From NCBI GenBank assembly GCA_963742735.1, contig CAVUMN010000004.1, positions 1,024,001 to 1,088,000 on the forward strand: a DNA stretch of 64,000 bases, written 5' to 3'. Below, one piece after another: positions 4,810 through 7,985 of the stretch (its first letter is position 1; each line of letters begins with the position of its first letter). Position numbers and translations under genes: made by a program. The notes below the pieces were generated by a model. It saw nothing but the letters and a program-made list of their open reading frames with translations, was not told where the DNA came from and made no database searches. The DNA comes from an uncultured Actinomycetes bacterium (lineage in GTDB: Bacteria > Actinomycetota > UBA4738 > JBBDTT01).

Positions 4810-5358
4810 GTGGGCACAGACTTGCAGTCGCGCAACATCGCGTATCTGTTCCAGGTCTGGGACACGAACGATACGGGGGAGCTCACCTGGGCCGACTACG
4901 AAGGCGTGGTCGACCGTCTCATTAGTGAATCCGGCCAGCCTGCTGGCGGCGACGCCCATGGGATGCTGACCGACGTCTTCAAGGCCGACTGGGCGGAGCT
5001 GACGAAGTCGGCCGACAAGGACGCGAACGGCTCGATCACTCCCGGCGAGTGGAACGCATACCACGTCAACATGGTGTCCACGGACGACGGATACCAGGTG
5101 GCGGTCGACTCGTTCGCCGAGGTGATCCTCCGGGTGGTCGACAGCGACCAGGACGGCGTGGTCTCCAAGAGCGACTACGGGAAGATCTTCACGGCGTTCA
5201 ACATCGACCCCGGGAAGGTCGACGAGGCGTTCGACAAGCTGGACTCGGACGACGACGGCAAGATCTCGGCGGACGAGCTCCGGCAGGCCGCGAAGGACTA
5301 CTTCCGTCCCGCGAGCGAGGACGCTCCCGGAAACTGGCTGTTCGGCTCGCCCGCGTAG
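4810..5358 (+). CDS. EF-hand calcium-binding protein (calerythrin-like)
   Basis: Four EF-hand loops DTNDTGELTWAD, DKDANGSITPGE, DSDQDGVVSKSD, DSDDDGKISADE; C-terminal PGNWLFG. Confidence 0.9.
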   Translation: MGTDLQSRNIAYLFQVWDTNDTGELTWADYEGVVDRLISESGQPAGGDAHGMLTDVFKADWAELTKSADKDANGSITPGEWNAYHVNMVSTDDGYQVAVDSFAEVILRVVDSDQDGVVSKSDYGKIFTAFNIDPGKVDEAFDKLDSDDDGKISADELRQAAKDYFRPASEDAPGNWLFGSPA

Positions 5359-5414
5359 CGACGAGCCCAACCGGCAGGAACGACCGCCCCCGAGGCCGCA
5401 GAGGAGTCGAGGCG

Positions 5415-6659
5415 ATGGTATTTCAGCCAGCAGCCGCGATGGTGCTCGAGCGCGCAACCTCGGGGGCGGTCGTACTCCGGTCCGATTTCGATGTGCTGTC
5501 CAGGAGGATCCACGGAAAGCCGCTGATCTATCTGGACAGCGCGGCGACGAGCCTCAAGCCGCGCGCGGTCATCGCGGCCATGAATGCCTACTACGCGCAG
5601 TACCCCGGCAACGTCTTCCGGGGCAACCACCTGCTGGCAGAGGAGGCCTCGGACGCCTTCGACGCCGCCCGGACGGCGGTCGCCGAACACATCGGCGGAG
5701 ACCCGCTCGAGGTCACGTTCTGGGCCAACACCACCGACGCCATCAACGCCGTCGCCCGGGGGCTCCGCCTCACGACCGAGGACCGCGTGGTGGTCCCGGT
5801 CAGTGAGCACCATTCGAACTTCCTGCCCTGGCTCCGCGGCGCCAGTGTGGACCTCGTGCCGGTCGATCGTGAGGGGTTCGTCGACCCGGCGGAGATCCGC
5901 TCGCGGCTCGAGCGCGGTCCGCGTCCGCGCCTCGTGGCCCTCGGCCATGTGTCCAACGTCACCGGCGCGATCCAGGACGTCGCGCAGATCGGCCGGCTGT
6001 GCAACGAGTTCGGCGTCCCCCTGCTGGTGGACGGGGCGCAGGCCGCCCCCCATCTGCCGGTGGACGTCGAGGAGCTCGGCTGCAGCTTCTACGCCTTCTC
6101 GGCGCACAAGATGCTCGGCCCCACCGGCGTCGGGGCCCTGTGGGGCCGGCTGGACGAGATGGAGCGACTCGAGCCGGTCCGCCTGGGCGGCGGGACCGTG
6201 CTGCGCGTCCAGAAAGACCGCTTCGAGCTCAAGGATCCGCCTCACAACTTCGAGGCGGGTACGCCCAACATCGCCGGGGTGATCGGGTTCGGAGCCGCGA
6301 TCCGCTACCTGCAGGCGGTGCCCGAGCGGGCCGCCGCCGAGACGGAGCGTCGGCTGGCCGGCCGGATGCTGGAGCGGGCCGCGGGGCACTCCCAGCTCCG
6401 CGTGCTGGGACCGCAGACGACCGACCGGCGCATCGCCCTGGTGACGCTCCTGGTGGACGGGCCCCAGTCGGCGGACCTCCTGTCGTTCAAGCTGTCCGAC
6501 CGTCACGCCGTGATGACCCGCAGCGGCACCCACTGCGCACAGCCGTTCTTCAGCTCGATCGGCGCCCCGACCAGCGTGCGCCTGTCCGCGTACCTCTACA
6601 CGACGGTCGGGGAGATCGACACGGCGTTCGACGCCATCGAGAGCATCCTGGCGGACTGA
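5415..6659 (+). CDS. SufS-type (group II) cysteine desulfurase
   Basis: YLDSAATSLKP, PLP lysine in FSAHKMLGPTG, EAGTPNIAG, catalytic Cys in RSGTHCAQP. No other suf genes nearby. Confidence 0.9.
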   Translation: MVFQPAAAMVLERATSGAVVLRSDFDVLSRRIHGKPLIYLDSAATSLKPRAVIAAMNAYYAQYPGNVFRGNHLLAEEASDAFDAARTAVAEHIGGDPLEVTFWANTTDAINAVARGLRLTTEDRVVVPVSEHHSNFLPWLRGASVDLVPVDREGFVDPAEIRSRLERGPRPRLVALGHVSNVTGAIQDVAQIGRLCNEFGVPLLVDGAQAAPHLPVDVEELGCSFYAFSAHKMLGPTGVGALWGRLDEMERLEPVRLGGGTVLRVQKDRFELKDPPHNFEAGTPNIAGVIGFGAAIRYLQAVPERAAAETERRLAGRMLERAAGHSQLRVLGPQTTDRRIALVTLLVDGPQSADLLSFKLSDRHAVMTRSGTHCAQPFFSSIGAPTSVRLSAYLYTTVGEIDTAFDAIESILAD

Positions 6660-6672
6660 GGCCCGCGCGGGC

Positions 6673-7788
6673 TCAGGGTCCCGCGGCGCCCGTCAGCGTC
6701 CCGAGGAGCCAGCCGAGGACCAACACGCCCCCCGCCGCCAGCAGTACGGAGGAGACGGCGGCGCCGATCGCGTAGGTCACGTACAGGCGACGCAGCCTCG
6801 CGGGGACAACCGGCGCCGGCTCGGTGGAGCGGCCGAGCGCCCGCTTCACCCAGCCGGTGACGTGGTCGATCGACCGGCGCCGCAGGTTCGGCGTGTCGAC
6901 CGCGTTCGACAGAAGCAGATAGCCGTCACCGCTGAGGAAGGGGATGAGCGTGCGCACCGCCCCGATGAGGTTGACCACCATGAAGGCGACGGCGCCCCGG
7001 GCGGCGAGACCTCCCGGCGGGGACCCCCACCACGCCAGCGTCGCAAGGGCCCACAGGACGATGGTGGCGAACGGGCCGGCGATGATCACGCCGGCGCGGC
7101 TCCGCCGGTCCGGAAAGAGCCAGGCGTCGCTGACGTCGGTGTAGAACCGGGGCAGCAGGTAGTGCAGGATTGCGCCCATCCGCCGCACGCTGCCGCCGTG
7201 GGCTTTCACGGCCAGGCCGTGCATGAGCTCGTGGATCGAGACGCTGACGACCAGGGCCGGGACCAGGAGCCCGACCCCCGCGGGTGAGGCCAGGGTCTCG
7301 ATCCCGTCCAGGACTTCGCCGAGCTCCAGGACCCACACCCCCGCAGCCACCAGGATCGGGACGGCCGCGGCGAGCACGAAGGCCCGGGAGAACAGGAAGC
7401 GCGTGCCGCGCAGGAGCCCCGTCAGGAACCGGTCGGGATCGACCTCGAACGGCAGACGAACGTAGAACAGCTTCCGGAGCGGGCCACCGGAGATCCCCAG
7501 GTCCTCCTCCGGTCCGGCGACCTCCTCTCCCGGAGCGACGATGAGCTGCAGCCCGTGGAGGCGGTCGCGGAACCGCTCCAGATTCTCGATGGGGGCGACC
7601 ACGCCGTGCTCGGTCTCGAGCCGGCCCCGGATCTCCTCGAGGGTCGAGGCGCCGTCGAAGTGGCGCGCCACGAGCATCTCGGCGGCGCCCAGCCGCACGA
7701 AGGTGTTGCGGACCGGGTCCTTGACGACGAAGTGGGACTCCTGCGGGACGATGACGAGATCGGGACGCAGGCGCAGCAGCCGCGTCAC
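6673..7788 (-). CDS. M50-family membrane metalloprotease with N-terminal PqqD/RRE-like domain
   Basis: N-terminal FVVKDPVRNTFVRLG...HFDGASTLEEI (RRE-like), HELMH zinc motif, FYTDVSDAW, PFLSGDGY, several TM segments. GTG 7788 overlaps the upstream stop (GTGA). Confidence 0.85.
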   Translation of the reverse strand: MTRLLRLRPDLVIVPQESHFVVKDPVRNTFVRLGAAEMLVARHFDGASTLEEIRGRLETEHGVVAPIENLERFRDRLHGLQLIVAPGEEVAGPEEDLGISGGPLRKLFYVRLPFEVDPDRFLTGLLRGTRFLFSRAFVLAAAVPILVAAGVWVLELGEVLDGIETLASPAGVGLLVPALVVSVSIHELMHGLAVKAHGGSVRRMGAILHYLLPRFYTDVSDAWLFPDRRSRAGVIIAGPFATIVLWALATLAWWGSPPGGLAARGAVAFMVVNLIGAVRTLIPFLSGDGYLLLSNAVDTPNLRRRSIDHVTGWVKRALGRSTEPAPVVPARLRRLYVTYAIGAAVSSVLLAAGGVLVLGWLLGTLTGAAGP

Positions 7789-7985
7789 AGAGCCACCTTG
7801 TACTCGAGCTGTTCCACCTCCTCGAGATCGAGCACGGTGCCCGCCTTCACGAAGATCTCGGAGAGGCTGAGCGATCCGGGTCTGATCTCGACCAGCTCCA
7901 CCGACACGCCCGGGAGCGGGTCGACCTGCCACTCCAGGAAGTCGGCCTCGACGCCGGGGGGCGGCGCGAACGGTCCCTCGGTCAC
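7785..7985 (-). CDS. Putative pearlin scaffold/carrier peptide (66 aa)
   Basis: MTEGPFAPPPGVEADFLEWQVDPLPGVSVELVEIRPGSLSLSEIFVKAGTVLDLEEVEQLEYKVAL. GTGA overlaps at both ends (7982-7985, 7785-7788). The acidic C-terminus resembles TglA/AmmA-type carriers. Confidence 0.75.
   Translation of the reverse strand: MTEGPFAPPPGVEADFLEWQVDPLPGVSVELVEIRPGSLSLSEIFVKAGTVLDLEEVEQLEYKVAL

Follow-up and report, generated by a model that had tools for sequence, protein, structure and literature searches.

The locus described here raises the question of whether a frame of 66 codons, lodged between two longer genes downstream of a gene whose product is a PEARL (peptide aminoacyl-tRNA ligase), encodes the carrier of a biosynthetic pathway. 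The window, which denotes the whole stretch of DNA that was analyzed, comprises 64,000 nucleotides (positions 1,024,001 to 1,088,000 of contig CAVUMN010000004.1) from an uncultured bacterium of the Actinomycetes. In the pearlin scheme as outlined in PMC9303977, one amino acid is added to a carrier peptide, tailored on this carrier, and released by a membrane protease. Comparison of sequences points to the 66-aa product as a carrier (scaffold) peptide of a pearlin-type pathway, served by the neighboring PEARL, with a probability of about 0.8. The same interpretation had been proposed in an initial annotation of this DNA, and it is supported by the PEARL operon, the tail motif of the peptide, the register of its family profile with those of known carriers, and the presence of equivalent peptides beside PEARLs in other genomes.

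The peptide gene and its relatives

The peptide gene is real and conserved. On the minus strand, positions 7985-7785 hold 66 codons and a stop; the translation ends in DLEEVEQLEYKVAL before the TGA, and its tail reads LDLEEVEQLEYKVAL. The frame overlaps a neighboring gene by four nucleotides at each end: the plus-strand TCAC at 7982-7985 is a minus-strand GTGA, in which the TGA of a methyltransferase-rhodanese gene (7982-9220) overlaps the GTG start of the peptide, and the plus-strand TCAC at 7785-7788 likewise joins the TGA of the peptide to the GTG start of the gene for an M50-type metalloprotease. A GGAG sequence is located ~9 nt 5' of the peptide's GTG, and no alternative in-frame ATG, GTG or TTG start was found within the 66 codons upstream of the block DFLEW. 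The G+C content of the window is 70.9%, which results in many long spurious open reading frames (ORFs), and in the ORF list the peptide frame is represented solely by the final 66 codons of a 273-aa ORF (7785-8606, minus strand). The GC fractions at codon positions 1/2/3 of the 66 codons (0.75/0.37/0.90) resemble those of the adjoining genes 7982-9220 (0.70/0.49/0.91) and 6673-7788 (0.75/0.48/0.93), whereas in the upstream remainder of the 273-aa ORF the pattern is a non-coding one (0.91/0.68/0.56), which marks this longer ORF as spurious. The initial annotation had described the 66-aa frame as a real gene with a GTGA overlap at each end and the 273-aa ORF as an artifact, and both descriptions hold. 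Its further claim that the peptide is hidden stands in part: the peptide is absent as an entry of its own from the list of longest ORFs, but it was not hidden from gene callers, because the protein collection already contains the 66-aa product (P0006).

The peptide contains four Ser, two Thr and no Cys among its 66 residues, in line with the earlier description of a peptide without a Ser/Thr/Cys-rich core, and its gene is present in a single copy in the source genome. The model of the isolated peptide (mean pLDDT, i.e. predicted local distance difference test score, of 42) is without secondary structure; the peptide alone is thus predicted to be disordered, in keeping with the role of a substrate peptide. 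Pfam searches at E up to 10 returned no match for the peptide or for two of its relatives, and a word-index protein search with the peptide matched solely the window's own product.

The initial annotation had proposed a tblastn search for an equivalent ORF beside homologous PEARLs. In such a search of 79 PEARL loci from reference genomes, one clear relative of the peptide was found (56% identity over 57 residues, E 1.6e-17) in locus L003, from a metagenome-assembled genome of the Kofleriaceae, where a gap of 6 nt separates the start of the peptide from the preceding PEARL, which shares 36% identity with that of the window. A second Kofleriaceae metagenome-assembled genome (locus L082) has the same PEARL-peptide layout, again with a 6-nt gap; the peptides of these two loci are 50-52% identical to the window's peptide, and their PEARLs 35-36% identical to the window's PEARL. 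The pairing of peptide and PEARL, which share one operon in the window, is found in L003 and L082 as well, and the outcome of the proposed search thus favors the carrier assignment. In an order-level (Haliangiales-level) search, the peptide was detected in three of 147 genomes, those of L003, L082 and L116, and in L116 it directly follows a methyltransferase-rhodanese gene. A profile search over 1.84 billion representative proteins gave 21 matches at E up to 0.001. Six of these are short (49-77 aa) and aligned over the full length; the other 15 are long (554-3260 aa, with 3-11 matched stretches each), were presumed to be repetitive acidic proteins, and were left out. The peptide frame is more than a chance occurrence, because such conserved relatives exist.

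In the resulting nine-member alignment, the relatives show 46-73% identity, and residues P25, G26, G37, L41, G49, L52, L54, E61, K63 and L66 are invariant. The peptide is conserved through to its last residue, with no variable core, and has a conserved N-terminal half of 35 residues that contains DFLEW and LPGVSVEL. This half probably offers a handle to the tailoring enzymes or to the recognition domain of the protease, by analogy with TglA, different regions of which are read by TglB and TglI as described in PMC9016710. Six of the nine members end in Ala-Leu. An end of this kind is typical of the family, and so the prior trimming that had been suggested to account for the terminal Leu is not needed. 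Two further members (P0036 and P0044) end in ...KIALC, i.e. in the Ala-Leu of the family followed by an encoded Cys; a locus scan for these two relatives found none. The data also suggest that relative P0027 and a PEARL that is 38% identical to that of the window (P0015) lie on one contig.

The C-terminal tail and the PEARL

The tail of the peptide follows the pattern of pearlin carriers, as had been claimed in the initial annotation. In an hhalign comparison of the nine-member family with four carriers of the TglA/BhaA type, 14 columns were aligned with an E-value of 7.1e-5 (for a single comparison) and a probability of 63%; residues 52-65 of the window peptide fall on residues 37-50 of the TglA-like peptide, and the C-termini are in the same register (FDLDDIEVIESKVFA in TglA versus LDLEEVEQLEYKVAL in the window). 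The TglA tail quoted in the initial annotation agrees with the TglA-Cys 19-mer FEEFDLDDIEVIESKVFAC given in PMC9016710. According to the same source, TglB binds a C-terminal TglA fragment of 20 residues and cysteinylates fragments down to 12 residues. The carriers BhaA and AmmA of the aminoquinone and ammosamide pathways are similar in their acidic tail ...LEEIEDKVA..., which is recognized by PEARLs; PMC11962472 reports that a C-terminal 12- to 18-mer of BhaA is enough for the enzyme and that its last residue is variable, the terminal Ala being replaceable by Leu, among others. Unlike the window peptide, which stops two residues past Lys-Val, these carriers add PLALA after KVA or KIA, and the Bha and Amm clusters in the literature rely on several PEARLs, whereas the window genome has one.

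The tail was also expressed as a regular expression of 12 acidic or hydrophobic residues, [DE]L[DE][DE][IVLM][DE]x[IVLM][DE]x[KR][IVLM], and used to scan 2,472,948 residues in 25,211 six-frame ORFs of 81 loci. Four matches were obtained, each two residues short of a stop and each inside a PEARL locus: the window frame itself (as locus L001), L003, L005 and L018. With 61 bits against a cut-off of 45, the peptide of L005 is classed as a TglA by the NCBIfam equivalog model NF038377; its locus is of the tgl type and contains an M50 gene, a gene of the TglH family, a PEARL and a gene of the major facilitator superfamily. Judged by the family models, the window peptide is not an equivalog of TglA or TmoA and represents a separate carrier family, which is predicted to work like TglA.

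Other carrier-like products were seen in the course of this comparison. BhaA-like peptides are present in L108-L110. Several myxobacterial PEARL loci encode proteins of 120-140 aa in which a PDZ domain precedes a tail resembling that of the carriers (...LSLDV.D..EVLERKISP or ...LSLEDVDLELERKIAP), namely L008:9019-9411, L006:12226-12642, L013:4790-5209, L017:2796-3161 and L004:16345-16707, and also L010, L012, L014, L016 and L031. The PDZ domain was confirmed by Pfam in all four proteins tested, and these products look like folded carriers more than peptides.

The PEARL of the window keeps the catalytic residues expected from sequence comparison with its characterized homologues. Pfam assigned only PF04738 (Lant_dehydr_N, the LanB glutamylation-type domain) to the 763-aa protein, with no elimination domain. 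Its residues R17, D494, E754 and R756 align with R10, D542, E801 and R803 of the TglB-like enzyme of L005, and they are invariant in an 18-sequence alignment that includes this enzyme. In PMC11962472, phosphorylation of the C-terminal carboxylate is reported as an activity of PEARLs, the TglB residues E542, E801 and R803 are assigned to the ATP-dependent phosphorylation step, and the matching Arg of BhaB7, R34, is described as contacting the substrate carboxylate. Residues Y125 and R128 belong to a conserved block, ...Y.QR..KN[ED]T.SFFGP, common to the window PEARL and the TglB-like enzyme; they were matched to Y205 and R208 of BhaB7 by spacing, not by alignment to BhaB7, in which a helix Tyr/Arg pair is said to hold the tRNA's 3'-CCA end (PMC11962472). 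A prediction of the PEARL-peptide complex (alignments of 17 and nine rows) scored 0.00 in two runs made without controls and is neutral on binding.

A PEARL is present in one of 201 genomes sampled from the order of the source organism, that one being the window genome. Metagenomes and Haliangium ochraceum are the sources of the closest relatives of the enzyme (P0008-P0014, 52-54% identity). Of their loci, genome and metagenome scans returned only L084, where a partial PEARL lies at a contig end and no peptide was found in the 2.3 kb of DNA upstream of it. Three genomes of the Haliangiales order (G249, G287 and G237) have four to seven PEARL homologues, several of them sharing one contig.

The operon, its protease and its tailoring genes

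The genes of the locus and its flanks are as follows.

10448..12739, minus strand: PEARL, 763 aa, a peptide aminoacyl-tRNA ligase of the small LanB-like type; its gene opens the operon (Pfam Lant_dehydr_N)
9230..10384, minus strand: methyltransferase-rhodanese fusion, 384 aa (Pfam); rhodanese loop YSEDGRRS, with Ser replacing the catalytic Cys
7982..9220, minus strand: methyltransferase-rhodanese fusion, 412 aa (Pfam, NCBIfam); rhodanese loop YCDTGERS, with the catalytic Cys
7785..7985, minus strand: carrier (scaffold) peptide gene, 66 aa; GTG start, TGA stop (translation, codon-position GC, relatives)
6673..7788, minus strand: M50-type intramembrane metalloprotease, TglG/TmoG-like, 371 aa (Pfam); HELMH motif, N-terminal domain like a recognition element
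5049..6659, plus strand, convergent with the M50 gene: ORF of a SufS-like cysteine desulfurase (Aminotran_5, 347 bits)
12782..14197, plus strand, divergent from the PEARL gene: group II decarboxylase dependent on pyridoxal phosphate (PLP), possible member of the cluster (Pyridoxal_deC, 157 bits)
4810-5358, plus strand: gene for an EF-hand protein, ~30 nt upstream of the likely start of the SufS-like gene and on the same strand

The operon lies on a single strand in the order PEARL, two methyltransferase-rhodanese fusions, peptide, M50 protease, with gaps of 63 and 9 nt followed by the two 4-nt overlaps. The start of the PEARL was placed by the coverage of homologues, and the SufS-like gene probably starts near 5390. 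The SufS-like product scored 369 bits against TIGR01979, under the cut-off of 475; the source genome has five class-V aminotransferase genes, and that of the locus is the best match to the family model. The PEARL lies within a 1088-aa ORF, 10448-13714, whose upstream portion is spurious and runs across the plus-strand decarboxylase gene. The minus-strand ORF 5298-6533 was considered as a conserved gene of unknown function and rejected, because it reads antisense to the SufS-like gene. Like 7785-8606 and 14337-16646, both are artifacts of the high G+C content, and each of the four either extends a real gene or lies antisense to one (PEARL, peptide, SufS, and an NAD synthase at 15005-16636). In the scanned part of the window (ORFs from 1 to 21456), Pfam identified no peptide exporter, and no MbnB/TglH-type gene was found among the ORFs scanned at the locus.

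The M50 protein has the motif HELMH and an LxPxxxGDG motif, and over 361 aa it shares 29% identity with the M50 protein encoded beside TglA in the tgl-type locus L005. Homologues at E below 1e-12 were detected by tblastn in 13 of the 79 PEARL loci. Its best NCBIfam match is NF041824, the daptide intramembrane metalloprotease (176 bits, cut-off 300). In PMC9303977, release of the product is described as the work of a membrane-bound metalloprotease, and in PMC9016710, TglB and TglG are predicted to contain recognition elements (RREs) of the type that bind the leaders of ribosomally synthesized peptides with post-translational modifications (RiPPs). The structural model of the window M50 (mean pLDDT 79, from a four-row alignment) has an N-terminal domain of three strands and three helices (beta3-alpha3). 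Foldseek gave no match for this model at E up to 0.001; its top rows are the site-2 proteases 3b4r and 8vjl and the RRE domains with leader peptide 5v1v, 6jx3, 4v1u and 8t19. The top RRE matches are TbiB1 and a lasso B1 protein, the rows 5v1v and 6jx3 having a template modeling score of 0.68 normalized to the target. A Pfam search at E up to 10 with the N-terminal 120 residues returned no match. The RRE that the initial annotation had ascribed to the M50 protein is thus upheld as a predicted beta3-alpha3 N-terminal domain with a weak match to solved RRE domains. With this TglG-like architecture, modeled and compared by sequence, the M50 protein is the candidate protease of the cluster for release of the modified residue. 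As a separate observation, the L003 locus encodes an M50 homologue fused to HlyD-type domains (7303-10062), in which PECAH stands in place of HExxH, the first His being lost, and upstream of this fusion lie a gene of the LanC-like kind and another LanB-like gene, which is of full length.

Several features of the locus and its counterparts point to sulfur chemistry. The two methyltransferase-rhodanese genes of L082 (1017-2288 and 2191-3426) encode, as in the window, one rhodanese loop with Cys and one with Ser, but when the methyltransferase halves are matched as orthologues, the Cys is found in one paralogue in the window and in the other in L082; given this swap, the two proteins could act as a pair. 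The rhodanese domains resemble that of the MoeB family model NF006444. In the tblastn set, no methyltransferase match outside the window's own loci reached the rhodanese part. SufS-like genes adjoin the carriers in L003, L082 and L004, and another is present in L029, where the carrier was not looked for. Homologues of the decarboxylase are divergent from PEARLs in L006 and L012, with further homologues in L125 and L053. In L003, the SufS gene located after the carrier is directly followed by a fusion of SufU/NifU_N with a cysteine synthase of the CysM type (13557-14885). Sulfur transfer combined with methylation has an even chance of being the tailoring chemistry. Cysteine is a tentative candidate, with odds somewhat below even, for the residue appended to the carrier, the lead coming from the two relatives that end in ...KIALC, and participation of the decarboxylase in the pathway is possible to about the same degree.

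Proposed pathway, alternatives and significance

We infer every chemical step of the following pathway. The PEARL would bind the acidic/hydrophobic C-terminal tail of the peptide, phosphorylate the carboxylate of its terminal Leu with ATP, and couple an aminoacyl-tRNA to this carboxylate, leaving the peptide one residue longer. The appended residue would then be tailored on the carrier by the two methyltransferase-rhodanese proteins, with the SufS-like desulfurase as the source of persulfide sulfur, and cut off by the RRE-bearing M50 protease, which would regenerate the carrier. The freed amino acid might be acted on by the divergent PLP decarboxylase. Among the described systems, the 3-thiaglutamate pathway of Pseudomonas syringae is similar in that TglA, a small peptide without a Ser/Thr/Cys-rich core, is encoded beside a PEARL (TglB) and an RRE-bearing membrane metalloprotease (TglG). 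The window peptide differs from TglA in its Leu end, its failure against the NCBIfam TglA model and its own conserved 35-residue N-terminal half, and the locus differs from the Tgl system in having methyltransferase-rhodanese fusions, SufS and a decarboxylase and no MbnB/TglH-type gene. The 3-thiahomoleucine system of Tistrella mobilis, as described in PMC9303977, likewise combines a carrier (TmoA), a Cys-adding PEARL (TmoB), a thiol methyltransferase (TmoS) and a membrane metalloprotease (TmoG). However, the methyltransferases of the window are fused to rhodanese domains, its peptide does not match the TmoA model NF050126, and no DUF692 or radical SAM genes are present at the window locus.

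Several observations weigh against the assignment of the peptide as a pearlin-type carrier. The likeness to known carriers is limited to ~14 residues: BLASTP gave no alignment between the peptide and the TglA-like peptide at E up to 100, and neither the window peptide nor that of L003 matched the NCBIfam models for TglA (NF038377) and TmoA (NF050126) at E up to 1. With a hidden Markov model built from two TglA-like peptides, the L003 relative was the top non-self ORF, but at E 0.7, and the window frame was absent from the best 15 rows. The regular expression was written from the window tail and from the carrier pattern given in the initial annotation, so only the matches in L005 and L018 are independent. 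The relatives seen in their genomic surroundings all belong to a single order (Haliangiales-level; L003, L082 and L116), and the L003 and L082 peptides are nearly identical to each other. The tailoring set is not constant either, because the L003 genome has no full methyltransferase-rhodanese gene and L116 has an aldolase-like gene instead of SufS after the peptide.

Three other explanations of the 66-codon frame were considered. High-GC DNA yields long spurious ORFs, three of which (7785-8606, 10448-13714 and 5298-6533) lie in this part of the window, and the frame could in principle be another one in a non-coding intergenic gap; the codon-position GC is nevertheless that of genes, a 4-nt overlap joins the frame to its neighbor on either side, and relatives at the protein level share 46-73% identity, so that this conservation refutes a chance ORF, to which we assign a negligible probability. 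A conventional RiPP precursor is a different matter: the end product would be the peptide in its modified form, whole or as a C-terminal fragment, and the M50 protein would be a leader peptidase or an immunity protein, not the enzyme that releases a single residue. The daptide model is the best NCBIfam match of the M50 protein, an M50-HlyD fusion and a LanC-like gene are found nearby in L003, and the authors of PMC9303977 state that modified peptides cannot be excluded as the real products. The daptide score is, however, well under its cut-off, no exporter was identified in the scanned part of the window, and the peptide itself looks unlike a precursor, being conserved to its last residue without a variable core, having no Cys and just six Ser/Thr, and bearing a tail in the same register as carrier tails. 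We therefore regard a RiPP precursor as unlikely.

The remaining explanation concerns sulfur carriers. CysO, ThiS and MoaD are small sulfur-carrier proteins of the beta-grasp fold with a C-terminal Gly-Gly; their C-terminus is activated, a rhodanese and a cysteine desulfurase serve as partners, and a metalloprotease regenerates the carrier. The peptide could be functionally similar to these proteins if the PEARL only made the acyl phosphate, which the SufS-loaded Cys rhodanese would convert into a thiocarboxylate or a methyl thioester. The recurrence of SufS-like genes and rhodanese domains with this carrier family, the resemblance of these domains to the one in the MoeB family model, the SufU-CysM fusion right after SufS in L003, and the phosphorylation of C-terminal carboxylates reported for PEARLs (PMC11962472) are all consistent with such a role. 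However, the window PEARL retains Y125 and R128, which by spacing correspond to helix residues that the literature assigns to the tRNA's 3'-CCA end, and the extra Cys encoded in two relatives fits the addition of a residue better. Moreover, the peptide ends in Ala-Leu and not in Gly-Gly, no beta-grasp fold or other fold is predicted for it at its mean pLDDT of 42, and the activating enzyme is LanB-like and not ThiF/MoeB-like. A sulfur-carrier role is accordingly very improbable. Only slightly less so is a combination of the two chemistries, in which the acyl-phosphate chemistry of the PEARL would be coupled to a persulfide relay from SufS to the rhodanese, and the carrier's C-terminus or the added residue would become a thiocarboxylate, a persulfide or a methyl-disulfide. 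If this were true, the locus would provide a LanB-like route to chemistry that ThiS, MoaD and CysO reach via adenylation, and would be the first pearlin pathway with a sulfur relay.

Carrier peptides, PEARLs and release proteases are already known. The sources consulted describe tailoring routes for pearlins by beta-carbon excision (Tgl, Tmo) and by indole/aminoquinone chemistry (Amm, Bha), and no paper linking PEARLs or pearlins with rhodanese, cysteine desulfurase or thiocarboxylate was found among the top-ranked full-text matches. What is new here is a carrier family without a curated model, with an Ala-Leu end and an N-terminal half of its own, and a gene set unreported for pearlins. The stop-anchored tail motif provides a search handle for carriers missed by gene lists and family models, and in the examined loci the carriers picked out with it were TglA-type, BhaA-type and PDZ-fused. 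Pearlins are a young class, and the locus, if the assignment of the peptide as their carrier is correct, would offer them a new tailoring route, in which a PEARL and a new carrier family are combined with methyltransferase-rhodanese fusions, a SufS-like desulfurase and a PLP decarboxylase in a set of five operon genes and two flanking genes that is compact enough for expression.

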